From Flavobacteriales bacterium (GTDB lineage Bacteria; Bacteroidota; Bacteroidia; Flavobacteriales_D; Sanyastnellaceae), in contig JBMYJR010000002.1 in assembly GCA_049594615.1 (NCBI GenBank), positions 39,028 through 103,027 on the forward strand: 64,000 bases of DNA, in the 5' to 3' direction. How positions within the stretch are numbered: the stretch's first letter is position 1; each line of letters starts with the position of its first letter. The notes below the pieces were generated by a model. That model was not told where the DNA came from and did not search any database. It worked only from the letters and a program-made list of their open reading frames with translations. This document shows positions 10,892 to 29,971 of this stretch, in pieces. Both the position numbers and the translations under genes were made by a program.

Positions 10892-13261
10892 ATGAATAGA
10901 GTACTAATGCTTTGCGCTTTGATGTGCGCGATGGTCACCACGGGCATAGCCCAGTGTGACGACGGCGAAATGCAAATCGAAATCATCATCAACCCCGACC
11001 AATACGACTGGGAAACCAGCTGGGATCTGGTCGGTGTTTCCACCACTTATGCCAGCGGATTAGCAGAAGGCGCCACCGTGTGCGTGCCTGAAGGAGACTG
11101 CATTTCTTTCCTGCTTCACGACTCTTACGGCGACGGTATTTTCAACGCGGACGCGTACACCATCAACATCGACGGCGAGCTTTTTGAAACCGGCACGTTC
11201 GACGGGCATGAGCACCAAGTGATCATCGATTGCTGGGAGGGAGGTGTGTGCGATACAGCAACTGCGATTGAACCGGGAGATTGGGTCGCCTCAAATGGCA
11301 ACGCTTGGTATACGTTTACCCCCGAGGTGAACGGCATGTATTTGGTGACAACCTGCGCCGAGGCCAACACGTGCGACACACGCATATGGATCTACGACTA
11401 CTGCAACATGTCCAACTTTGACAACAGCAATGAGGGATCCATCTATTTCGATGACAATGAAGGTGGGTGTGGAGAACAAGCCCAGTTCAATGCGTTGTTG
11501 GAAGGAGGGGTAACCTATTGGATTCGGATTGGGAGCACCGCGGGAGATTGCGGAGGTACCGATGTGTTCTGGAGCTTGAGCTACAATGGCTTGCCTGAAG
11601 GTTGCACGGATCCTGAAGCTTGCAATTACTCACCGATTGCTGATCTCGATGATGGCACTTGCGTGTATGAAGGTGATCCCTTGTGTGCAGCGCCAGACTT
11701 GATTATCGTCGAAGAAGCCATCGCCAACAGCATTTATGCCGAAGTGATGTTTGTAGACGAGAGCGATTGTTACATCGAAGAGGGCTGCCTAAACGGGTAC
11801 GGTGAGCGCGAGCTTATTCGATTTACGACACACATCAAGAACATTGGTGATGTAGATTACTACATCGGTTCTGCAGGGGATCCAGATGCTCCCGAGCAAT
11901 TCGAATGGGGTGACTGCCACAACCACTGGCACTACGAAGGATACGCAGCTTACATGCTCACCGATGCAGAAGACAATCTTCTTCCCATTGGACAAAAGAA
12001 TGGCTTTTGCGTGATGGACCTGGAGTGTTCAGACGGAGGGACTTTTCAATACGGTTGTAGCGTGATGGGTATTTCGGCGCACTGTGGCGACATATACGGA
12101 TCTGGTCTGAGCTGCCAATGGATCGACGTGACAGGCATTGCCGATGGGATCTACAAATTGGGTGTTATTGTGAACTGGGATCACACACCAGATGCCCTCG
12201 GACGTGAAGAAGCATCTTACGACAACAATTGGGGCCAAGTCTGCCTCGAATTGGACCGCACAAGCGGCGAATTAGAAGTGGTTGTCGTCGAAGAAAATTG
12301 TGAACCCTATGTGGATTGCAATGGGAATGTATGGGGCAATGCGACCGTGGACTGCAACGGTGAATGCGGAGGCTCAGCCCTTGCTGGAGATCTGGATGCC
12401 AATGGCGAACAGGAGTTGATCGATGCTGAAATGTACGTAGATCATATCCTGGGTGATGACATCGAAAGCACGCTATGTAACGACCTGAACGCGAGTGGCA
12501 GCATTACTGTCGCAGATGCCGCACTCTTGAGCCTGTGCAATGTGTACAATCTCGCTCACGAACACCCAGACAGTTCTGGGGTCCACAACAAATGCAATCT
12601 GCCTACCGATAACATTGTAAATGTCTTCGATACCACCACCTTCTCGATTGGCAATGTCAACTTCAATGAGAATTATTTGGATGTTCATGTGAAGAACCCC
12701 TACAACCGCATTGTAGGCTACCAGTTTTCGCTGACAGGGTTGGAGATCACCTCAGTGGTGTCCATTGCGGATCCGATAGGTTACCCGATTACTCCTTCAT
12801 TTTTGTTGGGTGGTCAAGAGGTTATCGGATTGAGTTACCAAGATTCTAGTTTGGCCAAGAGTCCAGAATTCCAGGCGTTGTGCCGTGTGTACTTTATCAA
12901 TCCTGAAGATGAGATTTGTATTGACCCCGTAGTGGATGTGGTGAATGAGGATTATCACACCACCTTGCATAATGTGGTTGATGGTTGTGTGATCAGCAGT
13001 TCTGTTGACGAGGTGGCACTCCAACGTGAAGTCATGTTCTCACCCAATCCCATGACCCAAGAGGCCACATTAAGCTTTTACAACCCCACACGCGAACAAT
13101 TCACCCTGGTCATCACCGATTTGGCCGGACGTGAGGTGATGCGTCAGACCGGTATCACCGGAACTTCTGTGCGCATTGATCGCGGCGATTTGGCGGTAGG
13201 AACGTACCAATACGTCTTGCAAGGACGTATACGTTACACCGGCAAATTCGGTGTGCGGTAA
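10892..13261 (+). CDS. Secreted multidomain lysyl oxidase (LOX)-like copper amine oxidase with dockerin-like pair, cohesin-like module and T9SS type A C-terminal sorting domain
   Basis: Signal peptide MNRVLMLCALMCAMVTTGIAQ. The LOX catalytic domain (nt ~11690-12253) aligns by eye to animal LOX: LIRFTTHIKNIGDVDY; FEWGDCHNHWHY, which carries the Cu His triad CH-xH-xH; GQKNGFCVMD, the LTQ lysine; CGDIYGSGLSCQWIDVTGIADGIYKL, the LTQ tyrosine; and SYDNNWGQVC. The C-terminus (FSPNPMTQEATLSF...GTYQYVLQG) is of Por_Secre_tail type. Confidence 0.85.
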   Translation: MNRVLMLCALMCAMVTTGIAQCDDGEMQIEIIINPDQYDWETSWDLVGVSTTYASGLAEGATVCVPEGDCISFLLHDSYGDGIFNADAYTINIDGELFETGTFDGHEHQVIIDCWEGGVCDTATAIEPGDWVASNGNAWYTFTPEVNGMYLVTTCAEANTCDTRIWIYDYCNMSNFDNSNEGSIYFDDNEGGCGEQAQFNALLEGGVTYWIRIGSTAGDCGGTDVFWSLSYNGLPEGCTDPEACNYSPIADLDDGTCVYEGDPLCAAPDLIIVEEAIANSIYAEVMFVDESDCYIEEGCLNGYGERELIRFTTHIKNIGDVDYYIGSAGDPDAPEQFEWGDCHNHWHYEGYAAYMLTDAEDNLLPIGQKNGFCVMDLECSDGGTFQYGCSVMGISAHCGDIYGSGLSCQWIDVTGIADGIYKLGVIVNWDHTPDALGREEASYDNNWGQVCLELDRTSGELEVVVVEENCEPYVDCNGNVWGNATVDCNGECGGSALAGDLDANGEQELIDAEMYVDHILGDDIESTLCNDLNASGSITVADAALLSLCNVYNLAHEHPDSSGVHNKCNLPTDNIVNVFDTTTFSIGNVNFNENYLDVHVKNPYNRIVGYQFSLTGLEITSVVSIADPIGYPITPSFLLGGQEVIGLSYQDSSLAKSPEFQALCRVYFINPEDEICIDPVVDVVNEDYHTTLHNVVDGCVISSSVDEVALQREVMFSPNPMTQEATLSFYNPTREQFTLVITDLAGREVMRQTGITGTSVRIDRGDLAVGTYQYVLQGRIRYTGKFGVR

Positions 13262-13278
13262 TTCCACTAAACACAATA

Positions 13279-13316
13279 CCCCGATCGACGTGAAACCACG
13301 ATCGGGGTTTTGTGTT
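13279..13316 (+). terminator. Rho-independent terminator of the lysyl oxidase-like gene
   Basis: ccccgatcg...cgatcgggg hairpin followed by ttttgtgttt, 18 nt after the stop. Confidence 0.75.
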
Positions 13317-13401
13317 TCACTTGTGTGAATCTTTCGTTAACAAGACCGTGCAACCTTCTGTATCTTTACCGTGTCTGTTTTGAGACGCGAAACCGCCTGC
13401 A

Positions 13402-16400
13402 ATGCGAATATTTTTGAACCATGCGATCATCCTGCTTGCGCTCTTGCCCTTCTCGGGCGCTGCCCAAGTGGTGATCAACGAATTTACAGCTGCCAACTAC
13501 AACGACTGGGACGTGGGCGACGAACACGACTGGATTGAGTTGTACAATACCGGCACGGCTGCCTTTGATCTGTCCGGACACTTCCTGTCGGACAACATGG
13601 ACAACCCCGATAAATGGGAATTCCCTGCCGGTACCGTTTTGAACGCCGGTGAGCACGCAGTGGTGCTCTGCTCGGGCTTGGGCGACACCAACCCCTACGC
13701 TTTTGGATACATGAATTCCAACTTCCGCCTCCGCCAAACCGGCAACGAGGAAGTGGTGTTTACAGATCCTTCGGGGACCATTCTGGAGGTCTACGAGTTC
13801 AACGTGATCGGTGCGGTACAGACAGACATGTCTTGGGGCCGCAACGGCGATGGTGGTGCCGACTGGGTCATCTATCCAGACCCCACCCCGAATAACAGCA
13901 ATACTGGTCCTACTGGCACGGCGTTCGCCGCGAAGCCACAATTCAATTTGGAAGCTGGCTACTACCCAGCATCCATCGAAGTGGAAATCACAACCCCCGA
14001 AGCAGGGGCAGAGATCCGTTACACCTTGAACGGTGATGCACCCACCGCCGCGTCCACCCTGTATACCGGCCCCATCACGGTGGCCAATACAACGGTGATT
14101 CGCTCTGTAGCCATCCATCCGGATGACAATATCTTGGACAGTTTCAATGAAACCAACACCTACTTCATTGGTGCTGATAGTCACGTGATCCCAGTGGTCA
14201 GTGTTTCAGGGGATGATATCGGCGACGGTTCTTGGCCTTGGGGCGATGGTGAGGTGTGTGCCATCGAGTTCTTTGACGAAAACGGCGTGTTCATTGACGA
14301 CGCAGAAGGCGACTCCAACGAGCATGGCAACGATTCAAACGCCTACGACCAGCGCGGGTTTGATTACATCACCCGCGACCAGATGGGGTACGACCATGCC
14401 ATCCACCACAACCCGTTCCCGGGCTACACCGATCGCGACGAGTACCAGCGTTTCATCTTCAAGGCTGCGGCCAACGACAATTACAGTTTTGCCAACGGCG
14501 CGCACTGCCGTGACCTGTTCTGCCACATGATCTCCGAAGCCGGTGACATGAAGTTGGACGAACGCCGCGGCTCCTACTGCATTGTATACCTCAATGGAGA
14601 ATACTGGGGCGTGTACGACATCCGCGAAAAGGCTGATGACTTGGACTACACCCGCTACTACTACGACCAACCCCGCGGTTTTGTGGATTGGCTCAAGACT
14701 TGGGGCGGTACCTGGGAAGAGTACGGTACGGGCGATGACTGGTACGACTTGGTAGACTTCATTACCGGCAACGACATGACCGATGCGGCCAACTACGAGT
14801 ACGTGGAGTCGCAGCTCAACACCAAGAGTTTGATCGATTACTTCATCTTGAACACTTACGTGGTAAGTGCCGACTGGCTCAACTGGAACACCACTTGGTG
14901 GCGAGGACGTCATCCAGACGGCGACGCCAAGCGCTGGCGCTATGTCCTGTGGGACTTGGATGCCTCCTTTGGCCACTACGTGAACTACACCGGTATCCCT
15001 GACACTGGCCCCACCGCAGATCCATGTGACCCTGAAGGCATGGGCGACGTGGGCGGTCAAGGACACATCCCCGTACTCAACGCACTGCTGGACAACGAGG
15101 AATTCTACAGCACCTACCTCGCACGCTACGCATCGTACAGCAACACCATCTTCAGCTGTGAGTACATGAATGCGTTCTTGGACTCCATCACCGGCGTGAT
15201 CGCCCCCGAGATGCAACGCCAAGTGGACGTCTGGGGAGGCACCTACGCCGGCTGGGAGGATGCCATCCAAACCATGCGTGACTTCATCAACGACCGCTGT
15301 GCAGATGAGCTCATCGGCGGCATCGAAGATTGCTACGATGTTGAAGCAGTAACTGTGACTGTGATCATTGACGGCATCGGCCAAGTAGAAGTCGAAAACG
15401 CATTGATCAACTGGGACGAGTCTCCATGGGTGGGTACTTACTACACCGACATCGGCATTGACTTTGATGCCTTTGAGACTGCCGGTGTCTTTCTGGGTTG
15501 GGAAGTCTTGGAGGGGGACGTCACCATTGACGACCTGCTAGATCCAAGTTTCGAAACCACACTTACGGGGAACATCACGATTGTTGCTCACTTCGACACC
15601 AACATCGATCCGCAATTGGTCATGTACGACGTACAACCGGCAGGAGCAGGGGACATCCTTTTGGACGGGGCCTCAACAGCGCCACACGCCAACACCATCC
15701 TGACCGATGGTGGTACCCGTGTGATCACTGCTGTACCCAACGAGTGGTACGTGTTTGACGATTGGGACATCCTGAACGCCACCTTCATCCCTGGTGCTTC
15801 GGATACCACCGGAGCGGTCTTTATCAACCAGACCGATACCATCATCGCCAACTTTATAGAGATCCCTCACTTTGATGTGATGGTGGACGTTCAACCTGCA
15901 GGTGCAGGGTCCATTTCCATCGATGCGCTGGACTACCCAGACCTTCCTTGGGAAGGTACTTTGGCAGGTGAGGTAGACCTCCAGTTCGTCACCTCTCCTG
16001 TGGACGAGTGGAGTGAGTTCCAATACTGGATGGTGAACAACCACGTGGTGAGCCCAGACGAGTTCTCGGCCAACATGGTATTGAACCTGAACCAGACCGA
16101 TACCATTGTGGCGGTCTACGAAGTGACTCCACACAACGAAATCACGGTCATGATCGATCCCCCGCTTGCCGGCGCCGTGAAGCCCGGTGACGGCCCCATC
16201 GTTCAGGACAGCTGGACCGATGAGGTCGAAGCAGGCGTTAATCACTTGTATGTGGCTACGCCCATCGACTTCTGGCGATTTACCGGCTGGTCGGCCAGCA
16301 ACCACAGCCCTACGCCAGACAACCGAGAGCCTGTAGTAAACTTCAATTTCTCCCAGAACGACACCATCGTGGCGCACTTTGAAAAAGAAGAGTTCTCGTT

Positions 16401-16680
16401 CTACGTGCCCAACTCTTTCTCACCTGACAACGACGGTATCAATGAAGTGTGGCAACCGGTCAGCGGTGCCATCGATGCCGACAACTACGAGGTGTGGGTG
16501 TTTGGGCGCAACGGCGAAATCGTCTTCCACTCGACCAACCCCAACCAGGTTTGGGATGGCGGCCACACCGGCGGCGACCACTACGTACAGAACGAAACTT
16601 ACGCGTTCCGCATCGTGGTCAAACCGATACATGAATTGGAGCCGCGCACCATTACTGGTCACGTGACCTTGTTGCGTTAA
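13402..16680 (+). CDS. Lamin-tail-domain / CotH kinase-family protein with 4 tandem ~83-aa repeats and T9SS type B (gliding motility-associated) C-terminal domain
   Basis: LTD: VVINEFTAANYNDWDVGDEHDWIELYNTG...HFLSD. Chitobiase-C-like segment AGYYPASIEVEITTPEAGAEIRYTLNGDAPT. CotH core: YLNGEYWGVYDIREK, DYFILNTYVVSADWLNWNTTWW, RWRYVLWDLDASFGH. The C-terminus FYVPNSFSPDNDGINEVWQP...ETYAFRIVV is of type B CTD. Confidence 0.8.
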   Translation: MRIFLNHAIILLALLPFSGAAQVVINEFTAANYNDWDVGDEHDWIELYNTGTAAFDLSGHFLSDNMDNPDKWEFPAGTVLNAGEHAVVLCSGLGDTNPYAFGYMNSNFRLRQTGNEEVVFTDPSGTILEVYEFNVIGAVQTDMSWGRNGDGGADWVIYPDPTPNNSNTGPTGTAFAAKPQFNLEAGYYPASIEVEITTPEAGAEIRYTLNGDAPTAASTLYTGPITVANTTVIRSVAIHPDDNILDSFNETNTYFIGADSHVIPVVSVSGDDIGDGSWPWGDGEVCAIEFFDENGVFIDDAEGDSNEHGNDSNAYDQRGFDYITRDQMGYDHAIHHNPFPGYTDRDEYQRFIFKAAANDNYSFANGAHCRDLFCHMISEAGDMKLDERRGSYCIVYLNGEYWGVYDIREKADDLDYTRYYYDQPRGFVDWLKTWGGTWEEYGTGDDWYDLVDFITGNDMTDAANYEYVESQLNTKSLIDYFILNTYVVSADWLNWNTTWWRGRHPDGDAKRWRYVLWDLDASFGHYVNYTGIPDTGPTADPCDPEGMGDVGGQGHIPVLNALLDNEEFYSTYLARYASYSNTIFSCEYMNAFLDSITGVIAPEMQRQVDVWGGTYAGWEDAIQTMRDFINDRCADELIGGIEDCYDVEAVTVTVIIDGIGQVEVENALINWDESPWVGTYYTDIGIDFDAFETAGVFLGWEVLEGDVTIDDLLDPSFETTLTGNITIVAHFDTNIDPQLVMYDVQPAGAGDILLDGASTAPHANTILTDGGTRVITAVPNEWYVFDDWDILNATFIPGASDTTGAVFINQTDTIIANFIEIPHFDVMVDVQPAGAGSISIDALDYPDLPWEGTLAGEVDLQFVTSPVDEWSEFQYWMVNNHVVSPDEFSANMVLNLNQTDTIVAVYEVTPHNEITVMIDPPLAGAVKPGDGPIVQDSWTDEVEAGVNHLYVATPIDFWRFTGWSASNHSPTPDNREPVVNFNFSQNDTIVAHFEKEEFSFYVPNSFSPDNDGINEVWQPVSGAIDADNYEVWVFGRNGEIVFHSTNPNQVWDGGHTGGDHYVQNETYAFRIVVKPIHELEPRTITGHVTLLR
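15343..16377 (+). repeat. Four tandem ~83-aa domain repeats inside the CotH protein
   Basis: Each unit has V(T/M)V..D(V)QPAGAG...W.(F/Y).(G)W......(T)I(V/I)A.F, for example VMYDVQPAGAGDILLDG...TDTIIANF and VMVDVQPAGAGSISID...TDTIVAVY. This resembles divergent InlB B-repeat-type domains. Confidence 0.7.
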
Positions 16681-16683
16681 GAC

Positions 16684-17436
16684 ATGCACGTTTCCCTGGA
16701 CGGACAGGCCATCTTGGTCACCGGTTCCAGCCGGGGCATCGGCCGTGAGCTTGCCATTTCATTGGCGAATTCGGGCGCCCAGGTGTGCATCCATTACAAC
16801 ACGTCAAAAAATGAAGCAGAGGCCTTGGCCTATGAATTAGGTCCGGGCTGCTTTGCTTTACAGGCCAATTTGGAAGACCCCGATGCGGTCGAGCGCCTCT
16901 TCTCCCAATGTGTAGATAGAGTGGGCAAATTAACGGGTCTGATCAACAATGCGGCTGTGGCCCTGAGCGCCGCACCAAACAGTCCGCAGTGGCTCGAGTT
17001 CTGGCAACGCACCATGGACATCAATGCGCAAGCTGCTGCCCAACTTTCCATGCTTGCTGTGGCGCATTTCACTGCGAATGGAGGGGGACGTCTGGTGCAC
17101 ATGGCCTCCCGCGCAGCACACCGTGGCGATACGGTGGATTATTTGGCATATGCCGCCAGTAAGGCCGCTGTGGTGGCACTCAGCAAATCGCTAGCACGTG
17201 CATACGGCAAGGACAACATCCAGTCCTTTGCCCTGGCCCCCGGCTTTGTCAATACCGACATGGCCCAAGACTTTGTGGAGCAATACGGAGAAGAGTATCT
17301 ACTGCAAGGCATGGCTCTTGATCAAATGACACGCCCCGAACATTTGGCGCCACTCACAACCCTCATCCTCAGTGGCATGATGGACCATGCTACGGGGCAA
17401 ACGTTTGACCTGAACGCAGGCAGCTACCTACGTTAG
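16684..17436 (+). CDS. SDR family oxidoreductase
   Basis: Glycine-rich NAD(P) motif VTGSSRGIGRE and catalytic YAASKAA (YxxxK). Confidence 0.8.
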   Translation: MHVSLDGQAILVTGSSRGIGRELAISLANSGAQVCIHYNTSKNEAEALAYELGPGCFALQANLEDPDAVERLFSQCVDRVGKLTGLINNAAVALSAAPNSPQWLEFWQRTMDINAQAAAQLSMLAVAHFTANGGGRLVHMASRAAHRGDTVDYLAYAASKAAVVALSKSLARAYGKDNIQSFALAPGFVNTDMAQDFVEQYGEEYLLQGMALDQMTRPEHLAPLTTLILSGMMDHATGQTFDLNAGSYLR

Positions 17437-17441
17437 GGCAT

Positions 17442-17470
17442 AAAAAAAGGGCACCCGCTCGGACGCCCTT
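17442..17470 (-). terminator. Probable terminator of the YceI gene
   Basis: On the minus strand, aagggc..gccctt hairpin followed by T7. Lies between convergent genes. Confidence 0.5.
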
Positions 17471-17494
17471 CATCTCTTCGATTGAGACGTTCGC

Positions 17495-18130
17495 CTACTT
17501 TGCAGTCTCCATTTCGGTAGACGCTTCGAGGTTGAAGCCAATTTCCATGTTGTCGCCCAAGGTAGCGTCGCCCAGCGATGAGCCGTACTCAACGCCCCAC
17601 TGGGTGCGGTCGATCACTACAGAGCCTTTGGCAGCCATCTTTCCGTCCAACTCGCTCATACGGATGGGGAAGCTGATTTCGCGGCTAACGCCCTTGAGTT
17701 CAAGGTTGCCGCCCAAGATGCCATCTGCGTGCTTGGTTACTGTGAAGGTGGCATAGGGGTGGGTTGCAACGTCAAAGAAATCGGGGCTGCTGAGGTGACC
17801 CACCAAATTTGCGCGTTGTTCTTTATCCTCGAGATCGGTATTGGCCATGGTGTTCATATCGATGATAACCATGCCTGAGGTAATCACACCGCCTTCAATG
17901 GTGACCTTGCCTTTCTTGATGCCAATGGTGCCGTTGTGGCCGCCGCCAATGATTTTGGTGCCTTCCCAGGTGACCGAGCTGGCGTCGGTGCTGACAAAGT
18001 AATCGGTGCTAGTGGCTTCAGCTACAGCAGGTTCTGCAGGTGCTTGTGATTCAACAGCGGTGGTGCTTTCGCCGCATGAGGCAAACAGGGCAACACCGGC
18101 TGCAAGTGCGAAGGTGTAAATCGCTTTCAT
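17495..18130 (-). CDS. YceI family lipid/polyisoprenoid-binding lipoprotein
   Basis: Lipobox MKAIYTFALAAGVALFASC. YceI-like blocks SSVTWEGTK, IDMNTMANTD, HLSSPDFFDVATHPYATF. Confidence 0.7.
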   Translation of the reverse strand: MKAIYTFALAAGVALFASCGESTTAVESQAPAEPAVAEATSTDYFVSTDASSVTWEGTKIIGGGHNGTIGIKKGKVTIEGGVITSGMVIIDMNTMANTDLEDKEQRANLVGHLSSPDFFDVATHPYATFTVTKHADGILGGNLELKGVSREISFPIRMSELDGKMAAKGSVVIDRTQWGVEYGSSLGDATLGDNMEIGFNLEASTEMETAK

Positions 18131-18221
18131 AATTGTTTCGGATTCAGATTATGGACGCAAATATATGTTTAGAACAACAGTTGTGCATAACGTAAGTTCG
18201 CAAAATAATTGTAATCGTCCG

Positions 18222-19817: not shown

Positions 19818-19906
19818 GGACTCAGCGACTGGAACGGCAAAGGTAGCAAGTCTTTCGCGTGGTGCCTTTCGGCAATTCGTACCTTTCAAGTACCAAATGA
19901 ATTGCC

Positions 19907-21433
19907 GTGAAGTACCCTGTTTTTCTGGCCGCTTTACTTGTGGCCTGCACCGCATGGTCGCAAGCTGACTTGCAATCGCCTCCGGAGGTGGTGTTTTCTT
20001 CTTTCATTACCGGACTGAACGACCCGGTGCGACTGGTTCCTGCTCCCGATGGGCGCCTCTTCATCCTGGAGCAATCCCAAGGTGACGTTGAAATCTACCA
20101 GCCCGACGGCACCTACATCGGCACCTTCCTGGACGTTTCTGGACTGATTTCAACCGGTAGCGAACGCGGCCTGTTGGGTATGGCTTTTCACCCGGATTAT
20201 ACTGCCAACGGCAAGTTTTACTTGAACTACACCGATGTGGGCGGAGATACCGTTGTTTCCGAATGGAGCGTTTCATCCAACCAGAATGTCGCAGATCCTG
20301 CAAGCGAGGTGGTGCTGCTGAACATTGTCCAGGATTTCTCCAACCACAACGGCGGGCACATTGCATTTGGTCCTGACGGCCACCTGTACATCGGCACGGG
20401 GGACGGCGGCTCTGGCGGTGACCCGTTGGCCCGAGCTCAAGACGGCCAAAGCCTGCTCGGCAAGATGTTGCGTATCGCGGTGGCCGGCGACGGTACGTAT
20501 ACCATCCCTGCGGACAACCCTTTCCTTGGTGCACCCGGCGTACTGGATGAAATCTGGGCCATTGGCCTGCGCAACCCTTGGAACTTCAGTTTTGACCCGT
20601 TGACTGGAGACCTCTGGAACGGTGATGTGGGCCAAGACCAATTTGAAGAAATCAGCGTGCAGTCTGGCGCCAGCACCGGTGGAGAAAACTACGGATGGCG
20701 GTGTTGGGAAGGGCTGGTGACGTTCAACACTTCAGAGTGTAGCACCTTGCCGCATCACCCTCCGGTCATCACCCACGCCCACACCGGATTTACCGGTTGG
20801 TGCAGTATCACCGGTGGATTCGTGTACCGCGGGACTGAATACCCGGGCATGGAAGGCTACTACCTCTACACCGATTACTGTCTGGGCGAAATACACGCCC
20901 TCAAAGACGACGGCGCAGGAGGCTACAACGCCTACACGGTCAACAGCGATGGCAACTTCGGCTACGTGCATTTGGCCACGGGCACCGACGGTACAGCCTA
21001 CATCGTGGATATCGGCGGCCAAGTACTCAAGGTGGAAGACGCCTGCAACACCTTGCCTGAGATTTCTTTGGACGTTGCGGGCACCTTGGAAGTCAACCTT
21101 GCTGGCGCGACTACTTACACGTGGTACCAAGACGGCTCTGCGCTTACAGGCTCGGATGCCGAAACGTGGACTCCTGCCACGAGCGGCACATACAGCTGTT
21201 TGGTAGATGTAGATGGATGCGTACGCTTGAGCAACGCCCAAGAGGTGGCTGTGCAAGTGGGGGTGCCCGGATGCACCTACGCCAACGCGACCAACTACGA
21301 AGCCAATGCTTCGGTGGATGATGGTTCGTGCCTGTTCACGGACTCCTGTGACGCAGACCTCAACGCTGATGGCACCATCGGCACCGCCGACATCCTAGAC
21401 ATTCTGGGCGCATTTGGAACAGACTGTCCTTAG
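19907..21433 (+). CDS. Secreted PQQ-dependent sugar dehydrogenase (soluble glucose/sorbosone dehydrogenase family) with Ig-like domain, one Cys-rich repeat and one dockerin-like C-terminal segment
   Basis: Signal peptide [19 protein letters not shown] (GTG start). GSDH blocks [43 protein letters not shown]. Tail: [23 protein letters not shown]...[28 protein letters not shown]. Confidence 0.8.
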
Positions 21434-23247: not shown

Positions 23248-23284
23248 GACCCAAAGAACCGAAATATTCCGTGCGGGTTCACAC

Positions 23285-23321
23285 CCAAACAAAAGCGCCC
23301 CGGTTTTCGAACCGGGGCGCT
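23285..23321 (-). terminator. Rho-independent terminator of the metalloprotease/BNR operon
   Basis: 12-bp stem agcgccccggtt-ttcg-aaccggggcgct, followed on the minus strand by ttttgttt. Confidence 0.8.
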
Positions 23322-23345
23322 TCTATACGTCAAACCTAAAGTCGT

Positions 23346-26300
23346 TTATGGACATGCAGTTCCGAACATGGCAAGCATGGTCAGCAGGTCAGAGGTGTCG
23401 GTACTGAGGTCGTCGTTGACGTCTCCGCTACACACGCCGGCGCAACCAAAGTCGCCGATAATCGCCAGCACATCACCGGTGCCAATGAAGCCGTCGTTGT
23501 TGAGGTCCATAGGACATGCGCACGAAGCATACTCACACGTGCCGTCGTCCAAGGTGGCACCTGCGTCGTAGTTGCAGGCACCGCTATCGGTGCAACCCGC
23601 GCATGTAGCGTACTCACATGAACTGTCGTCGATGGTGGCGGTAGCGTCATAGTTGCAGGCGCCGCTGTCGGTACAACCTGCGCACGATGTGAACTCACAC
23701 GAGCCGTCGTCGTTGGTGGCCGTTGCATCGTAGTTGCACGCACCGCTGTCGGTACACCCGTAGCAGCTCACCAAGTCACACGAGCCGTCGTCGATGGTGG
23801 CGGTGGCGTCGTAGTTGCACGCCACTGGATTTGTACATCCTGCGCAGGAAGTATACTCACACGAGCCGTCGTCCGAAGTGGCCGCAGGGTCGAAGTTGCA
23901 GGCGCTGCCGTCGGTACAGCCCAGCACGGTTGCCGGTACGGTACAGAAGGGGTGCAAAGCGTTGAAATCAAAATCGACAACGGGCATGGTCACCAGTACA
24001 GTGCCGTCTGCTTGGGTCAGGTAGTAGTCGCCGTCAATGGCACACCCATAGGCGGTGCCGTTCAGGCCGTCGCCGTAGCTGTCGAAGATTTCAAACTCGT
24101 AACAGGCATCGGTCAAACACACGTTGGTGGCAATGACTGAGTTGCTGGCCAATGGCCCGCCGCTGGCAATAACCGCGGTGCTGGCGTCGCGCAATTCCCA
24201 AGTGGTTTCTCCACCCCAACAATCGGTTTCGATGGTGATGGTGGTTTCAATTTCTCCCTCGCCGATTTCGTAGATGGACTCTTTGCTGTCGTTCGTGTTG
24301 TTCTGATCTGAGGCGATCACAATGCGCACAACAAAGGTGGCTGTGCCGGGCGTGCCTGTAACCGCCGGGAGGTTGACTTGCTCAGTCTCGCCAGTGGCCA
24401 GCGAACCGGTCCACGCGAACGATTGATCGTATACGCCGTTGAGTCCATATTCGATGGTGGCCGCCGTCAAGGTGTTGGCACCAAAGTTTCCGATGGTCAC
24501 AATGCCTTCCACATCGGGGTCACACTGAGTGGTGTTGGGAGCATCTACGGTCACAATGGCAGCATCGTCTGCGGGGATAACATACAGAGGTGCGTGCCAC
24601 AAACCGCGTCCGTATGTAGCTGCTACGATGGTGTTGCTGCCATAGTGGATTTCCAATTCAGAAACCACAGTATTTGGCAGCCCGTCGGTGTAGGGTTGCC
24701 ATGCAGCAAAGGAATTCTCGCGGTAGTACACACCGGCATCGGTGCCTACGTAAAGACCGTCGTCGGTGTCCTTCTGGTAAACGATGGTGTTGCAAGGTAT
24801 GGCCGGAAGCCCGTCGGAGTAATTGGTCCAGGTATCGCCTGAATCACCGCTGTAGTAGACTTTCGCACCCGAACCGAAGCCCGAGAAGCTCACCCACAAT
24901 CGTGTGGCGTCGGTAGGATCGATGGCAATGTAGGTGATCGATGAGCCCGAGAGTCCCGAGAGCGTGGTCCAGGTGGTACCTCCGTCTAGCGTACGGTAGA
25001 GGTTTCCGCCTTTGCCCACGAAAATCACATTCTCATCGGATTCGGCCACTGCAAGTGCGTTGCTGTTGCCTGTGGTGGGCATGGCGTATGAGGTCCAGCT
25101 GCCACCGGCATCTGTAGAGACGTGCAGACTCTTTTTGGCTACAATCAGTTTGTTGTGGTCGTTTTCGCTCATCACGTAAGGGGTGAGCCAAGCACCGCCT
25201 TCATTCGCACCGGACCCGTCGCTGTTCAGGATGGTCGAAAAGCTCGAACCGTAGTTGGTGGACTTGTAGATGCGACCGTAGTAGATGGTGCCATACATAA
25301 TGCTCTCATCGGTGTGGTCCACGATGCTTTCAAAGCCGTCGCCACCAATAGGGCGGGTCCAGTTGTTGCCGATTTTCAAGTTGCTGCCATTGTCTTGCCA
25401 GCCTGAGAACACAATGTTCTGGGTTTGGGCACTCAGCCCCAATCGGTAAATCTGGGCGATCTCCAGGTTGCTGGAAAGGTCCGAGAACGAAGTGCCGCCA
25501 TTCAGCGTACGGAACACGCCGCCGTCACAGCCGATCAGCAGGGTGGAGGTGCCGGGGATGAAGTACATGCCGTGGATGTCCGCGTGCACGTAAGGCGTAC
25601 CTGAGGCGCCGTACCAGTGGCCTACAATGTTCCAAGTGGCACCGCCGTCCGAGGATTTCCAAGTGTTTACACCACCTACATACACGACGTCTTCGTTGGT
25701 GGGGTCACATGCCGTAGCCAAGTCGTACCAGGCTTGACCGCCTGAGTCGGTACCATTCACGTTCCAACCGAGCAGGTTGATGGTGGCGGCGCTCGCCATT
25801 TGAGTCCAGGTGAGGCCCGCATCTTGCGATCGGTAGTAACCTTCAAAGCCTTGATCCGAAGAGCGGCCGGCCAAAATGTACAGGGTGTTCGGGTCAGAGG
25901 AACCTACGGTCAACGCCAAACGTGAAATGCCCGAAGTGGGCAGTCCAGTGGTGGATTGAGTCCAGGTGACCCCGTTGTCGTTCGAGAAGAAGAAATCATC
26001 ACCGTTGCCCACTGCAAACACTGTGTTTGCATCGCCGGACTTGAACTGCACGTCTTTGAAGTTGCCGCTCAAGGTTTGTGCCCAATTGGCCCCGCCGTCG
26101 GTGGTGCGGTGCACCCCGTTGGAGGTGGCCACCAGCAATACGTCGCTGTCAGAAGGATCCATGATGATGCGGTTGCAGCGGCGCACTTGTTGCACGGTCC
26201 AGTTGAGTCCGGTGGTGTTCCACGTTACGCCGTTGTCGGTGGACTTGAGTACACCCAGCGCGTAGGTGTCTCCAGCGTCACCGTCACCGGTGGCGATGTA

Positions 26301-26858
26301 GAGGGTGTTGGGATCGTTGGGGTCAATCGCCACATCCGAAACGCCAATGGAACCGAGTTGGTCGGTGTTGACCACCTCCCAGTTGGTTCCAGCGTTGTTT
26401 GAGCGCCAGAGGCCTCCTGCTGGAGCACATGCGTAGTAACGCAAGGTGTTGGACGGATCCACGCGCACCATATTTACGCGGCCAGCGCCTCCGCCACCCC
26501 CTGGAACCGAGGTGTTGCCAAAGTAGGTCCACACGCCCGACTGCGAGAGGCGGACCTCACTTCCACGGTTGCGTTGCACAGCTTGGTACACCGCATCTGG
26601 GGCTACCATGTCGCCGCTCGGGGCAAGGCGGGGCTCCCAAAAGTGCTCCCAGCGCTTGTATTGTTTGTAGCCTTGGCCACGTTCGATTTCGCGTCCTTCC
26701 CAATAGTCGTTGAATTCGGTTTGGACTTCGTAAAGGTTGACGTTAGGATCTTGGATCCGTTCGGCCCAGACCTTGTCTTGGCCAAACAGGGAAACCGAAA
26801 GGCCCATTGCAATTGCAATGAGCCCTCCGTTCCCGAGAATGCAGGAAATGTATTTCAC
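23346..26858 (-). CDS. Secreted BNR/Asp-box (sortilin-like) multi-propeller protein with CARDB-like domain, DSYGDG module, 5 Cys-rich repeats and paired dockerin-like C-terminus
   Basis: Signal peptide. Asp-box motifs STDNGVTW, TTDGGANW, SNDNGVTW, SQDAGLTW, SSDGGATW, STDAGGSW, TLDGGTTW, SGDSGDTW. C-terminal cassette described under findings. Starts 11 nt after the upstream metalloprotease gene on the same strand. Confidence 0.8.
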   Translation of the reverse strand: MKYISCILGNGGLIAIAMGLSVSLFGQDKVWAERIQDPNVNLYEVQTEFNDYWEGREIERGQGYKQYKRWEHFWEPRLAPSGDMVAPDAVYQAVQRNRGSEVRLSQSGVWTYFGNTSVPGGGGGAGRVNMVRVDPSNTLRYYACAPAGGLWRSNNAGTNWEVVNTDQLGSIGVSDVAIDPNDPNTLYIATGDGDAGDTYALGVLKSTDNGVTWNTTGLNWTVQQVRRCNRIIMDPSDSDVLLVATSNGVHRTTDGGANWAQTLSGNFKDVQFKSGDANTVFAVGNGDDFFFSNDNGVTWTQSTTGLPTSGISRLALTVGSSDPNTLYILAGRSSDQGFEGYYRSQDAGLTWTQMASAATINLLGWNVNGTDSGGQAWYDLATACDPTNEDVVYVGGVNTWKSSDGGATWNIVGHWYGASGTPYVHADIHGMYFIPGTSTLLIGCDGGVFRTLNGGTSFSDLSSNLEIAQIYRLGLSAQTQNIVFSGWQDNGSNLKIGNNWTRPIGGDGFESIVDHTDESIMYGTIYYGRIYKSTNYGSSFSTILNSDGSGANEGGAWLTPYVMSENDHNKLIVAKKSLHVSTDAGGSWTSYAMPTTGNSNALAVAESDENVIFVGKGGNLYRTLDGGTTWTTLSGLSGSSITYIAIDPTDATRLWVSFSGFGSGAKVYYSGDSGDTWTNYSDGLPAIPCNTIVYQKDTDDGLYVGTDAGVYYRENSFAAWQPYTDGLPNTVVSELEIHYGSNTIVAATYGRGLWHAPLYVIPADDAAIVTVDAPNTTQCDPDVEGIVTIGNFGANTLTAATIEYGLNGVYDQSFAWTGSLATGETEQVNLPAVTGTPGTATFVVRIVIASDQNNTNDSKESIYEIGEGEIETTITIETDCWGGETTWELRDASTAVIASGGPLASNSVIATNVCLTDACYEFEIFDSYGDGLNGTAYGCAIDGDYYLTQADGTVLVTMPVVDFDFNALHPFCTVPATVLGCTDGSACNFDPAATSDDGSCEYTSCAGCTNPVACNYDATATIDDGSCDLVSCYGCTDSGACNYDATATNDDGSCEFTSCAGCTDSGACNYDATATIDDSSCEYATCAGCTDSGACNYDAGATLDDGTCEYASCACPMDLNNDGFIGTGDVLAIIGDFGCAGVCSGDVNDDLSTDTSDLLTMLAMFGTACP
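23517..23921 (-). repeat. Five in-frame tandem 81-bp coding repeats (27-aa Cys-rich unit)
   Basis: The protein reads GCTDGSACNFDPAATSDDGSCEYTSCA / GCTNPVACNYDATATIDDGSCDLVSCY / GCTDSGACNYDATATNDDGSCEFTSCA / GCTDSGACNYDATATIDDSSCEYATCA / GCTDSGACNYDAGATLDDGTCEYASCA. Similarity between units is also visible at the DNA level. Confidence 0.9.
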
Positions 26859-26869
26859 TTGGTAAAGGT

Positions 26870-29800
26870 TTAATCACATGAGGTCCCGAACACAGAGAGC
26901 AGTTCCAGGATATCTCCCGAGGCCACTTCGCCGTCTTCGTTGATGTCTGCGATGCACTCGGATCCTGAGCACCCGAATTCGGCTAGCAGTATCAATAGGT
27001 CAGTTACGTTGCGGTCCAAGTCGCCGTTCAGGTCGGCGTAGCAGGTGCAGCTGGTGAATTCGCACGAGCCGTCGTCGCACGCAGCGGTTGCATCGTAGTT
27101 GCAGGCGGTAGCATCAGTACAACCGTCGGGCAAGATGCACGAGCCGTCATCGATGGTGGCCGTCGCGTCGTAGTTACATGCGGCAGCATCGGTACATCCT
27201 GCGCATGAGGTAAACTCACACGAGCCGTCGTCTGAGGTAGCAGCAGGGTTGTAGTTGCACGCGGTGTTGTCGGTACAGCCCAGCACAGTGCTTGTCACGC
27301 AGAAGGTTTCGGTAATGCTTGCGCCATAGTTGGAGGCCGCCATTTGAACCAGAACAGTACCTCCGTTGTCGGTCACTGAGTAGTCGCCGTCCACCCCACA
27401 CGCGCCGTAGGAAGCGCCCGAGAGCCCGTCACCATACGTGTCAGTGATGGTCAGGTCGTAACACCCGTTCGAAAGGCAGAATTCGGTGTCGTAGGTGGTT
27501 TGGTTGCCCAGGGTTCCAGAGGATAATGAGCCCAGCACTTCACCAGTGGTTTGGTTGGTGAGGGTCCAGCCCACTTCGCTGCCCCAGCAGTCGGTCAACA
27601 GCGAGAAGGTGACCAGGTTAGGGGCCGCCACCGTAGAGAAGTTGGTGGTTTGGCTATTGTTGGCAGGGTTTTCGTCGGCTTGGCCGTTGGGGTTGCTGAC
27701 AACTGCTTCATAGGTGTGCGAACCGTCTGCTGGAAATAGGGTGGGCAATGTGACCAACTCAGTGGATCCGAGTGTGAGGGAACCGGTCCAGTTGACAGTT
27801 CCTTGTGAAACGCCATCTACAAAAGTCTCAATGTCTGCAGATGTAAGGGTCTCGGTACCGAGGTTGAGGAGTTGGATGATGGGATTGATGGTGTTTCCAC
27901 AGTAATCGCCTTCTGGTTCGATGATGGCGTTGATCACAGCATCGTACTGTGCAGAAACGACTGATGAGGTGATTTCTACGTTGGCGTTGCTGATGTCAAA
28001 GAACACATTGCCGTTGCCTTTGATCTTGATCCGCGCGGTGGTGGTTTCCACAGACGGCATGGTCACGAGTTCGGCGCCGTCGTTGGCGGTACCTGAAACC
28101 AGCAGCGTAGGGTAGGTGAGGCCACCGTCGGTGGACAGGTAAATGTCCACAGCCGTGCAGTTTACAGGTGCACCGTCGGTACCGGCGACGTCCCAGCTAA
28201 CTGGAACAGGTCCGCCGCTTGGGAGGGCTTCTCCTCCGTTGGGGTACGTCACCAAAAACGGCCCCGTATCGCCGTCTACCGTGATCTGCATTTCGTCTTC
28301 GTTCACGCCACCACCACCAGCGCGGTTGTCGCGCACCGAACAACGGAAGGTCATGCCGCGGTCGTAATCAGGGAGGTGCTCACCTACTACGGTGGTGTTG
28401 TTGATCAGATCAGTGATGCGTGGGAATACACGTGTGGGGTCTTCAGTCCCTTTCCAGGAGCGGAAGGTGGGCTGGTTGCCCGAAGGATTGCTCAGGTCGC
28501 TGTCACCAGCGGCTGTCGCAGGGCCAAGATCGTATTCCTCCCACGTGTAGGTGATGGCGTCGCCGTCTGGATCCGATCCGGTGGCAGTCAGCTCAAACGG
28601 TGTGGCACCGGGAATGGTGTAGTCGGCACCGGCATCTACGGTTGGCACTCCGTTACCGGTGGTGGTCACCACTGCACAGGTGTTGCCGTTGCCGTTGACG
28701 GTAAACGCCTTCATTTCGTTGAAGCTGTGGATGTGGAAGTAATCGTCCGAGTTGCTTTGCAGGTTGGGCGAGCAAATGCCAGCGTAACCCATGATGGTGG
28801 ATGCACTGCCTGGCTCGTAGGCAGCACCCGAGGAACGGTTGCAGCTGTTGTTTTGGGTGTGATTGCCGCCGTATTGGTGGCCCATCTCGTGGCACACGTA
28901 GTCGATGTCAAAAGGATCGCCTACCGGTGTAGGTTGTCCGGTAACACCACCGGCTTTGTTTGAGCCGCAAGGGCTTTGCAGGTAGGCCACACCTCCGCCG
29001 CCGGTAGAATATACGTGGCCAATGTCGTAGTTGGCCGATCCGATCTGCGCATTGCAGGTGTTGATGTTTTGGCCCAGCATGGTGCCGCCGCTGTTGTTGG
29101 TGTAGGGGTCGGTGGCGCCATCGAGGAAGATCACGTTGTTGTTGTTGGCGACCAAATCCATATGTACCGCAACTTCGCGCTCGTAAACACCGTTCACTCG
29201 GGTCAGGGAGGTGTTGTAGGCATCCACTACATCGGGCACAGTTCCTCCGTGGAATTGGGCGTACTCACCGGTGCAGGCCAGTGCCAGACGGTAGGTTCGC
29301 AGCTCAGTGCCGCTTTCGGTGCGGACTTGCGCGGCCGATTGACCAAAGTGGCGCACTTGGCGGTCGTGTGCAGGCTTGTCGTACTTGGTACTGTTGCTCT
29401 CGTCGAACTTCTGCAGGTCCATCTGCACGTCGTCCACGATGGGAGGAAGTTCTTCAAATACCTTATCAGTGTTGGCGTAGAAGGCCTTTTTCGTGTATGA
29501 CTGGTAGGCCTCGGTGGTCCCGTCGGTCAAGGGGTCGATGTACCACGTATCGCCATTGTTGATGACCATGGCATGGAAGCCTTTGGGAGACATGCTCAAG
29601 CGCACAGTGGCCGAAGGGTCGGTGATCCCTTGACCCGCATACGAGCGGATGTTGGGGTAGCGTTCCTGCAGGGCAGGCGCCATCACGGGGAACTCCACAA
29701 TGCTAAATACTTGGATGGTGCCGTCGGGTGCAGGCAGCTCCAACAGGGTGCCGCTATCTTTGGCGCGCACATCTTGAATGTGAGGGGCTTGGCGCAGCAC

Positions 29801-29971
29801 GCCCCAGAGGGCCGCAGGGGAAGTAGTTATGCCACGGTAGGTCGCGGGCTGTATCCAGCGTTGGCCGCTCACGCGTTGTTCTGAAGCTTGGTCTTGCCAA
29901 AGTTGGGCCAAGCCAGAGGAGGAGAGCAGAAGAGCCGTGACGAGGCTCAGGAGGGTGTAACGTTGCATCAT
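26870..29971 (-). CDS. Secreted reprolysin-like (metzincin) zinc metalloprotease with CARDB-like domain, DSYGDG-like module, 3 Cys-rich repeats and paired dockerin-like C-terminus
   Basis: Signal peptide MMQRYTLLSLVTALLLSSSGLAQ. Zinc motif HEMGHQYGGNH (HExxHxxGxxH) at nt 28859-28891. Tail: CYADLNGDLDRNVTDLLILLAEFGC...ADINEDGEVASGDILELLSVFGTSCD*. Confidence 0.8.
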   Translation of the reverse strand: MMQRYTLLSLVTALLLSSSGLAQLWQDQASEQRVSGQRWIQPATYRGITTSPAALWGVLRQAPHIQDVRAKDSGTLLELPAPDGTIQVFSIVEFPVMAPALQERYPNIRSYAGQGITDPSATVRLSMSPKGFHAMVINNGDTWYIDPLTDGTTEAYQSYTKKAFYANTDKVFEELPPIVDDVQMDLQKFDESNSTKYDKPAHDRQVRHFGQSAAQVRTESGTELRTYRLALACTGEYAQFHGGTVPDVVDAYNTSLTRVNGVYEREVAVHMDLVANNNNVIFLDGATDPYTNNSGGTMLGQNINTCNAQIGSANYDIGHVYSTGGGGVAYLQSPCGSNKAGGVTGQPTPVGDPFDIDYVCHEMGHQYGGNHTQNNSCNRSSGAAYEPGSASTIMGYAGICSPNLQSNSDDYFHIHSFNEMKAFTVNGNGNTCAVVTTTGNGVPTVDAGADYTIPGATPFELTATGSDPDGDAITYTWEEYDLGPATAAGDSDLSNPSGNQPTFRSWKGTEDPTRVFPRITDLINNTTVVGEHLPDYDRGMTFRCSVRDNRAGGGGVNEDEMQITVDGDTGPFLVTYPNGGEALPSGGPVPVSWDVAGTDGAPVNCTAVDIYLSTDGGLTYPTLLVSGTANDGAELVTMPSVETTTARIKIKGNGNVFFDISNANVEITSSVVSAQYDAVINAIIEPEGDYCGNTINPIIQLLNLGTETLTSADIETFVDGVSQGTVNWTGSLTLGSTELVTLPTLFPADGSHTYEAVVSNPNGQADENPANNSQTTNFSTVAAPNLVTFSLLTDCWGSEVGWTLTNQTTGEVLGSLSSGTLGNQTTYDTEFCLSNGCYDLTITDTYGDGLSGASYGACGVDGDYSVTDNGGTVLVQMAASNYGASITETFCVTSTVLGCTDNTACNYNPAATSDDGSCEFTSCAGCTDAAACNYDATATIDDGSCILPDGCTDATACNYDATAACDDGSCEFTSCTCYADLNGDLDRNVTDLLILLAEFGCSGSECIADINEDGEVASGDILELLSVFGTSCD
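27044..27280 (-). repeat. Three in-frame tandem copies of the same Cys-rich unit (27, 25, 27 aa)
   Basis: GCTDNTACNYNPAATSDDGSCEFTSCA / GCTDAAACNYDATATIDDGSCILPD / GCTDATACNYDATAACDDGSCEFTSCT. Confidence 0.9.

Follow-up and report, generated by a model that had tools for sequence, protein, structure and literature searches.

Predicted four-cysteine dockerin-type tails on exported proteins of marine Flavobacteriales: a candidate attachment tag

How might exported enzymes be held in place when they end in a short cysteine-rich module instead of a sorting domain of the type IX secretion system (T9SS)? The question is raised by a stretch of 64,000 nt from a Flavobacteriales bacterium (GCA_049594615.1, contig JBMYJR010000002.1, positions 39,028 to 103,027), called the window below, which has a G+C content of ~56% and in which a cluster of genes for secreted proteins sits among housekeeping genes. 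Four window proteins end in such a tail: a pyrroloquinoline quinone (PQQ) glucose/sorbosone dehydrogenase, a BNR/Sortilin propeller, a reprolysin-like metalloprotease and an Ig-like repeat protein encoded at 60038-62245. A fifth, a lysyl oxidase (LOX) protein, has a T9SS C-terminal sorting domain (CTD). An earlier note, made from the sequence alone, took the tails for dockerin-type modules and suggested either that the LOX protein is an anchored scaffoldin receiving them, or that the tail is itself a sorting signal that replaces the CTD. We report here that the tails are, by sequence and predicted fold, dockerin-type modules of a widespread and rarely annotated class, and that they may tentatively be read as attachment tags.

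A six-frame regular-expression scan of the window returned six dockerin-like segments of 22 residues, all of them in frame and at the C-termini of four open reading frames (ORFs). A seventh segment, CYADLNGDLDRNV..., which is the first of the reprolysin tail, was missed by the expression and is visible in the sequence. In the BNR, reprolysin and Ig-like tails, two such segments of ~22 residues stand in tandem, each consisting of a putative Ca2+ loop (D1, N/D3, D/N5, D12) followed by a helix. The earlier note had counted five Cys-bracketed carriers. The four C-terminal tails stand, with the reservation that the PQQ protein has a single segment, half a dockerin in which both bracketing cysteines are nevertheless present, and that the Ig-like tail has lost Cys1 and Cys4 while keeping the central Cys2-x-Cys3 pair; the pair in the LOX protein is of another type. 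A profile built from 26 four-Cys tails picked out the four tail ORFs and no other part of the window, with E-values of 1e-22 and 3e-22 for the BNR and reprolysin tails, both of which are within the profile, and of 8e-13 for the Ig-like tail, which is not. It might be argued that chance or composition accounts for the motifs, as Asp/Asn/Gly-rich low-complexity sequence with no shared origin, given that the segments are short and that two of the five carriers have no match to a curated model. This was rejected, and we dismiss it almost entirely: the expected number of chance matches of a 99-nt degenerate pattern covering the second half of the tail was 0.00 in 100 shuffles of the window, the segments are all in frame and directly precede stop codons, the four cysteines are invariant across the 26 aligned tails, homologous tails number in the hundreds, and the predicted dockerin fold is a confident one.

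Scanned alone, the reprolysin tail matched Pfam Dockerin_1 (PF00404) at 26.9 bits, above the cut-off of 22.9, and the BNR tail at 18.3 bits, below it. When the reprolysin tail was compared with the sequences in the PDB, all 12 matches were dockerin-bearing chains; in the best of them, 2y3n_B (E 4e-4), both segments were spanned. An AlphaFold2 model of the BNR tail, computed from the 26-tail alignment, had a mean predicted local distance difference test (pLDDT) score of 91.9 and contained two helices. A Foldseek search of the PDB with this model returned dockerin-containing entries as its top 32 matches, again headed by 2y3n_B (template modelling (TM) score 0.84/0.83, root mean square deviation (rmsd) 1.0 A over 54 columns). 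These results indicate that the tails are, as far as sequence and modelled structure can tell, dockerin-type modules, in agreement with the earlier note; this identity is a result of computation only, as are three features described below, the strictly C-terminal place of the tails, their spread among taxa and the range of their cargo. A generic EF-hand protein was ruled out by calmodulin-type Foldseek matches with TM scores < 0.3, a variant of the T9SS CTD by the wrong fold and the lack of a model match, and a sortase-type signal (PEP-CTERM, LPXTG) by the lack of a transmembrane helix or basic tail.

From the co-variation of Cys2 with Cys3 (phi 0.76) and the joint loss of Cys1 and Cys4 in the Ig-like tail, we infer two disulfides, one between Cys1 and Cys4 that would clasp the ends of the module, and one between Cys2 and Cys3 that would bridge the linker. 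For Cys1 and Cys4, co-variation measured with a fixed-offset regular expression gave a phi of 0.28 (Fisher p 1e-4), a value confounded by an FGPCP subtype in which the last Cys is one residue closer; the hidden Markov model (HMM) alignment, which trims its ends, is uninformative for this pair. The linker between the two segments is 3-5 residues long, whereas the clostridial dockerins aligned with the tails have a longer spacer.

The dockerin tails are directly preceded by tandem Cys-rich mini-repeats of ~27 residues, GCTDxxACNYDxxAxxDDGSC, which we call CNY repeats (Table 1). In the window proteins these repeats had no Pfam match. PF11617 (Cu-binding_MopE) matches 27 of the 82 listed tail proteins of other Flavobacteriales, and these matches probably fall on the CNY repeats. 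In a related metagenome-assembled genome (MAG; L001), the contig terminates within the CNY repeat region, which suggests an assembly break. As to the PQQ half-tails, one may speculate that two of them could come together, joined by intermolecular disulfides, to make up a single dockerin-like unit; the dimeric state of soluble PQQ glucose dehydrogenases would suit such pairing.

The tail had been thought to be an undescribed tag. This did not hold up, as the tail class is, by sequence, already catalogued by NCBIfam under NF041540, "GC-type dockerin domain-anchored protein" (dockerin_GC), a definition that we take from its name only. The NF041540 model aligns from end to end (1-67/67) with the reprolysin tail (20.8 bits) and the BNR tail (16.3 bits), and shares with them the C-terminal place, the F-hand pair and the Gly...Cys ending. 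It also matches 58 of 96 representative proteins with C-terminal tails and 35 of the 82 listed Flavobacteriales tail proteins (E <= 1e-3). The Flavobacteriales form differs from the general class in its fixed layout, C-P-x-D...FGC-x3-C...FG-x-x-C, in its linker of 3-5 residues and in the CNY repeats that often come before it; another form, …FGPC-x2-CPEDVNGDG…HFGPCP, accounts for many of the best matches of the NF041540 model. On this sequence comparison, the window tails are a four-Cys, short-linker Flavobacteriales variant of the GC-type class and not members of NF041540, since they score below its cut-off of 29 bits.

A search of 1.84 billion representative proteins with the window-tail profile returned 14,340 clusters at E <= 1e-3 and 561 at E <= 1e-10. 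Among the best 150 matches, 97 finish in [FWY]G..C, at most 4 residues from the C-terminus, and 34 have the four-Cys layout C-P-x-D...F-G-C-x3-C-x-x-D...F-G-x-x-C. Dockerin_1 matches 70 of the 96 representative tail proteins (E <= 1e-3) versus 6 of the 82 listed Flavobacteriales tails. With so few Dockerin_1 matches among the latter, and fewer than half of them reached by NF041540, the tag is rarely annotated in Flavobacteriales. A search of the literature found no publication on GC-type dockerins or NF041540; in the literature searched, dockerins are tied to Flavobacteriia or the T9SS only in reviews and in a paper on Cloacimonadota. The four-Cys form does not appear in that literature, and neither do its prevalence in marine Flavobacteriales, its strictly terminal place or its non-glycosidase cargo. 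Distinct from the single terminal tails are five proteins of the representative set with 7-16 tandem dockerin-like stretches (P0011, P0012, P0013, P0016 and P0020), one of which also has a clostripain C11 domain.

The spread of the four-Cys tails was followed in GTDB species representatives with a hand-made degenerate DNA pattern that does not include the stop codon. At least 120 loci were found. Those listed all lie in MAGs, often several per genome, and by their record titles 87 belong to Flavobacteriales, 7 to Crocinitomicaceae and 17 to Bacteroidota/Bacteroidetes, that is, 111 carry one of these labels. The 9 others are labelled Comamonadaceae (L023, L050, L054, L067 and L103), "Methanobacteriota archaeon SP189" (L009 and L019), Gammaproteobacteria (L064) or "bacterium". 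Because the proteins encoded on these contigs have Bacteroidota-type signal peptides, the contigs are probably mis-binned; lateral transfer may also have occurred. The position of the tail is nearly invariant: in 149 of 153 listed tails the last Cys lies within 5 residues of the stop codon, and in 52, 67 and 26 of them the distance is 0, 1 and 2 residues, respectively. The sole recurrent exception is an internal four-Cys dockerin followed by a Fibrobacter succinogenes major paralogous domain (PF09603), present in L113 (923-2161, minus strand) and in P0091 and P0140. Tail genes are often adjacent, two or three of them in tandem or convergent (L005, L013, L015, L036, L044, L078, L083, L102 and L115), and the BNR and reprolysin genes of the window adjoin in the same way.

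The carriers appear to be exported by the Sec route. All four tail ORFs of the window have hydrophobic N-termini, the signal peptides having been called by eye and with a hydrophobicity heuristic, and so do 71 of 101 listed full-length carriers, only 2 of which have a lipobox-like motif. As the earlier note had read from the sequence, the four proteins lack a T9SS CTD, with no match to TIGR04183, TIGR04131, PF18962 or PF13585 at E <= 0.1. The carriers span > 30 Pfam families. In the 82 listed Flavobacteriales carriers the cargo comprises choice-of-anchor B/LVIVD proteins (17), endonuclease I (8), trypsin-like peptidases (8), plastocyanin-like (4) and FG-GAP/ASPIC (4) proteins, reprolysin (3), Sortilin (3), CotH (2), PAD (2), subtilase (2), PHB depolymerase (2) and thioredoxin/AhpC-TSA (2). 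There is a single GH16 protein among the 82, which bears out the earlier expectation that the cargo would mostly not be glycoside hydrolases.

Choice-of-anchor Q proteins make up 10 of the 96 representatives, and choice-of-anchor X and J carriers are also present. Choice-of-anchor proteins are surface proteins that have LPXTG, PEP-CTERM or T9SS anchors depending on the lineage (bioRxiv 10.1101/2023.03.06.531300). Since members of the carrier families have other anchors elsewhere, the tail sits, by sequence and at the level of the family only, in the anchor slot. The CotH/LTD protein of the window, which ends in a T9SS type B CTD, is an example of such cargo with a T9SS anchor. An anchor swap between orthologs was rejected for CotH, because the tail-bearing CotH proteins (L005 and L013) are not orthologs of the window protein, with which they share only LTD and the family, in another domain order; the swap consequently holds at the family level only. 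Tails and T9SS CTDs had been expected to exclude each other. No carrier indeed has both at its C-terminus, but this is trivial because both must be C-terminal, and within whole proteins internal dockerin repeats do co-occur with Por_Secre_tail (P0029, P0030 and the LOX protein).

The LOX protein bears on the nature of a possible receptor. Its frame, read from 10844, encodes 805 aa, the Met at 10892 being the likely start, and PF01186 Lysyl_oxidase matches aa 284-468 (E 2.4e-27). The type A T9SS CTD attributed to it was recovered with TIGR04183 (Table 1); PF18962 scored 24.4 bits there, under its cut-off of 27, and a precomputed PF18962 match is present in LOX homologs. The internal F-hand pair resembles the PDB dockerin 4uyp_B (E 0.019) and escaped detection by the four-Cys tail profile even at E 10, and by sequence it is a different, more classical type of dockerin than the tails; AlphaFold2 gave this part a pLDDT < 50. 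For the beta-sandwich module that follows, a model from a shallow, 7-sequence alignment had mean pLDDT values per 10-residue block mostly of 78-95 (range 61-95). Its top 20 Foldseek matches in the PDB were all cohesins (E 1.6e-5 to 5e-4, Foldseek probability 1.00, target-normalised TM 0.47-0.61). The best was 6kgf_A (E 1.6e-5, TM 0.60), and clostridial types, cohesin-like modules of C. perfringens and the archaeal 2xdh were all represented. The first non-cohesin, the CLIPPER domain 9ifr, came at rank 21, and carbohydrate-binding modules (CBMs) at E 2e-3. Since the top 20 are all cohesins, a cohesin-like fold is the best reading of the modelled module, with moderate similarity. In the LOX family an invariant HEHPDS...KC linker joins the dockerin to the beta module, the three being conserved as one unit, and 20 of the 30 clusters of the LOX-module family have a precomputed T9SS CTD match. 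A predicted cohesin-fold module on a T9SS-anchored lysyl oxidase is likewise new relative to the literature searched.

What, then, might the tails do? Our preferred reading, in which our confidence falls just short of even, is that the tail serves as a tag for non-covalent attachment to another protein, its receptor. The module, a pair of EF-hand-like units of Ca2+ loop and helix joined by the short linker and probably stapled by two disulfides, ends Sec-exported, mostly non-lipoprotein enzymes in the slot of T9SS CTDs or other anchors, and it would tether the enzyme to a cohesin-like receptor in the cell envelope or on the cell surface. We infer Ca2+ binding from the conserved D1/N3/D5/D12 positions; the tethering and the nature of the receptor are likewise presumptive. 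As for topology, the tagged enzymes may be captured in the periplasm, may be exported piggy-back with a CTD-bearing receptor, or may take another route.

The same tails could instead be an export or sorting signal replacing the T9SS CTD, read by an outer-membrane or attachment machinery and maybe processed at the terminal Cys. A last Cys within 0-2 residues of the stop in 145 of the 153 listed tails is stricter than a plain binding module needs, the tail occupies the anchor slot both in choice-of-anchor proteins and in typical T9SS cargo families, the NCBIfam class is named "domain-anchored", and the tail proteins combine Sec signals with no other known outer-membrane export signal. Classical dockerins, however, are usually C-terminal too, and no candidate machinery gene was seen beside the tail genes. 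We favour a binding tag over an export signal, which we hold to be quite unlikely, because the dockerin fold is that of a known binding module rather than of a beta-sandwich CTD or a transmembrane-plus-basic sortase-type tail, because the dockerin module is also found internally, upstream of genuine T9SS CTDs (P0029, P0030 and LOX) or of a Fib_succ_major domain, and because the tail bears no resemblance to any known sorting signal. The tail might also have no heterologous partner at all and be a Ca2+- and disulfide-stabilised terminal module, a stabiliser or homo-oligomeriser, on carriers that are periplasmic or non-specifically released. This we consider somewhat unlikely. It would accommodate the carriers that are periplasmic elsewhere (4 plastocyanin-like, 2 thioredoxin/AhpC-TSA, 8 endonuclease I and the PQQ dehydrogenase), the lack of T9SS CTDs and lipoboxes, the retention of both bracketing cysteines in the PQQ half-dockerin, and the failure of the LOX-module HMM to detect a cohesin near the tails. 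It fits poorly with cargo that is typically extracellular (reprolysin, subtilase, PHB depolymerase, GH16, CotH and choice-of-anchor proteins) and with the long Cys-rich CNY linker repeats, which are as expected for a displayed module, and it does not need a strict terminal position across unrelated catalytic domains.

Several observations weigh against the attachment tag, a reading drawn from sequence and predicted structure. The PQQ and Ig-like tails, when scanned alone, had no Pfam or NCBIfam match, and the double tails fall below the NF041540 threshold. Plastocyanin-like proteins, thioredoxin/AhpC-TSA, endonuclease I and soluble PQQ glucose dehydrogenases are classically periplasmic, so the tagged proteins may never reach the surface, and we know of no way in which a Sec substrate of Bacteroidota with neither a T9SS CTD nor a lipid anchor could cross the outer membrane. 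The only cohesin-like module found as a candidate receptor is the single-copy one of the LOX protein, and the link to cohesins comes from one moderate fold match: LOX residues ~500-735 have no Pfam Cohesin (PF00963) match at E <= 10, no other Pfam family was found in the post-dockerin region, and neither a profile of 7 LOX orthologs run against the PDB nor phmmer returned a cohesin. Of the cohesin-like module that had been proposed, the predicted fold thus stands, and support from profiles is missing. The same evidence bears on the scaffoldin logic, according to which the module of the T9SS-anchored LOX protein would bind the four window tails and so display protease, propeller and dehydrogenase. 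Its predicted fold, the CTD on the same polypeptide and the proximity of the LOX gene to three tail genes, 6.6-17 kb away both in the window and in its close relative L001 (GCA_041236835.1, ~89-90% nucleotide identity), are all in its favour. L001, however, is the only relative that shares the window arrangement; in the distant relatives L124, L125 and L126, the LOX gene has an S46 peptidase gene upstream and a CotH gene downstream, with no four-Cys tail gene within 10 kb. The LOX-module HMM, which covers the LOX-type module only, found no further copy, either in the window or among the 120 tail loci listed, and the module family has 30 clusters, mostly fragments and apparently of one LOX/dockerin/cohesin-like/T9SS-CTD orthologous family, versus thousands of tail clusters. 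The LOX module is always preceded by its own dockerin of another type, a more obvious partner, and its structural similarity to cohesins is limited (target-normalised TM ~0.6, rmsd 4-5 A). Thus, while a predicted cohesin-like fold and a CTD are indeed combined in one protein, we regard the LOX protein as an unlikely scaffoldin for the window tails; its modelled module is one candidate receptor and unlikely to be a general one. A broader version of the attachment-tag reading, a two-tier display in which a minority of proteins, cohesin-fold receptors such as LOX that their T9SS CTD exports and anchors covalently, serve a larger set of Sec-exported four-Cys dockerin enzymes, which would dock in the periplasm and pass through the T9SS piggy-back as folded complexes or would be captured at the surface, is in our judgement improbable. 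If it were true, abundant ocean bacteria would have in the four-Cys dockerin a genuine second means, besides the CTD, of placing proteases, nucleases and redox enzymes at their surface.

The attachment-tag reading can be set against known systems. Clostridial cellulosomal dockerins (PF00404), such as that of Pseudobacteroides cellulosolvens Cel48 (2y3n_B, the best match of the tails in both sequence and fold, at 31% identity), have the same duplicated Ca2+-loop-plus-helix and the same C-terminal place on secreted enzymes. The tails differ in having four cysteines (we know of no conserved Cys in classical dockerins), a much shorter linker and a Gram-negative marine Flavobacteriales host instead of a Firmicute. 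In contrast to a cellulosome, the tail cargo consists of proteases, nucleases, redox proteins and propellers, and no multi-cohesin scaffoldin was found with the LOX-module HMM in the window or in the tail loci listed. T9SS CTDs (TIGR04183, TIGR04131) likewise terminate Sec-exported cargo of Bacteroidota, in the same families (CotH, M12B, subtilase and choice-of-anchor); these, however, are beta-sandwiches of ~70-90 residues, whereas the tail is a predicted alpha-helical F-hand pair of ~55 residues, and no T9SS model matches the tail proteins. Non-cellulosomal cohesin and dockerin modules have also been reported (Peer et al. 2009, as cited in PMC6487960 and PMC8542988). As far as these citing papers describe them, they occur on non-cellulolytic proteins and may both be present in one polypeptide, as in LOX; what differs here is a cohesin recognised by fold only, a Cys-stapled dockerin and a putative T9SS CTD anchor. 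Three such structures, 2xdh (Archaeoglobus fulgidus cohesin) and 2jh2 and 2w1n (Clostridium perfringens), are among the Foldseek matches of the LOX module, and 2ozn_B, also from C. perfringens, is among those of the tail. Dockerins have also been reported in rumen Bacteroidetes (PMC6487960). The scheme of the earlier note, presented as lacking a characterised counterpart in Bacteroidota, has a precedent in "Ca. Stygibacter" (Cloacimonadota), for which a cellulosome-like complex with dockerin-tagged peptidases and a cohesin protein bearing a conserved CTD that would attach it to the surface was proposed in silico (Williams et al. 2021, PMC8542988). The two cases have in common C-terminal dockerins on signal-peptide enzymes that include peptidases, a Bacteroidota-related host and their in silico basis; "Ca. 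Stygibacter", on the other hand, has a scaffoldin of 3,755 aa that bears tandem cohesins as well as CBMs, whereas here there is one cohesin-like module, on LOX, and the dockerins are of the four-Cys type.

Uncultured marine Flavobacteriales play a major part in breaking down algal and particulate organic matter, and how they position their exo-enzymes decides who gains the products of hydrolysis. Judged from its sequence matches, the tag is widespread in this ecologically important group; it is carried by several proteins per genome, is mostly unseen by Pfam and is absent from the literature searched. Should the tag serve in tethering, it would alter which enzymes of ocean metagenomes are predicted to be "secreted" and which "cell-bound". 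If T9SS-anchored cohesin-like receptors were also involved, this would be the first cohesin-dockerin display system of Bacteroidota, and protein engineering would gain a compact (~55 aa), disulfide-locked affinity pair. Should the module do no more than stabilise, only a useful annotation rule would remain.

The features of the window are collected in Table 1. The protein at 60038-62245, which had been described as a beta-helix protein, showed no match to a beta-helix family and only Big_13/Y_Y_Y-like stretches.

Table 1. Genes, modules and repeats of the secreted-protein cluster and of the Ig-like protein, in window coordinates
Feature	Position	Strand	Remarks
LOX protein gene	10892..13261	+	signal peptide, N-terminal module, CNY repeat, lysyl oxidase, dockerin-like pair, cohesin-like module, T9SS type A CTD
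CNY repeat within LOX protein	11603-11662	+	1 copy
Internal dockerin-like F-hand pair of LOX protein	12386..12544	+	Dockerin_1 15.6 bits, profile positions 1-52/57, under cut-off
Cohesin-like beta-sandwich module of LOX protein	12611..13003	+	predicted fold only
T9SS type A C-terminal sorting domain of LOX protein	13040..13258	+	TIGR04183 24.5 bits, cut-off 23
CotH/LTD protein gene	13402..16680	+	PF08757 CotH 6e-36; PF13585 CHU_C; T9SS type B CTD at aa 1002-1092 (TIGR04131 40.4 bits, cut-off 35)
PQQ glucose/sorbosone dehydrogenase gene	19907..21433	+	PF07995 GSDH 1.4e-44; single-segment Cys-bracketed tail
CNY repeat upstream of PQQ tail	21272-21331	+	1 degenerate copy
PQQ half-dockerin tail	21344..21430	+	one segment, then stop; regular expression; four-Cys profile positions 27-56, E 9e-8
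BNR/Sortilin propeller gene	23346..26858	-	PF15902 Sortilin-Vps10 2.8e-31; NF045728; 5 CNY repeats, four-Cys dockerin tail
BNR four-Cys tail	23349..23522	-	CACPMDLNNDG...FGCAGVCSGDVNDD...FGTACP, then stop; two segments
CNY repeats directly upstream of BNR tail	23535-23918	-	5 copies
Reprolysin-like M12B metalloprotease gene	26870..29971	-	PF13583 Reprolysin_4 5.1e-31; 3 CNY repeats, four-Cys dockerin tail
Reprolysin four-Cys tail	26873..27049	-	CTCYADLNGD...FGCSGSECIADINEDG...FGTSCD, then stop; two segments
CNY repeats directly upstream of reprolysin tail	27062-27277	-	3 copies
Ig-like repeat protein gene	60038..62245	-	signal peptide; degenerate dockerin tail
Ig-like protein tail	60041..60220	-	…ADFGCNIFEPDCYESDFNFN…FGQDVM, then stop; two segments; regular expression

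Three secreted window proteins have in common a module of ~55-100 residues with the motif DCWG.E..W ... D(S/T)YGDG, which matched no Pfam or NCBIfam family. It is located at 27425-27592 in the reprolysin gene, from aa ~878 onward (nt ~24227 downward) in the BNR protein and at nt ~10950-11200, the N-terminus, in the LOX protein.

The LOX gene also belongs to a trio of S46 peptidase, LOX and CotH genes (7890-10097, 10892-13261 and 13402-16680 in the window). The trio is kept in distant relatives (5741-14102 in L124 and 5641-13540 in L126), at 45-58% identity in the cohesin region, and the LOX-CotH gene pair is conserved in both. The conservation of this neighbourhood at such a distance suggests that the lysyl oxidase and the CotH kinase-like protein are functionally linked.

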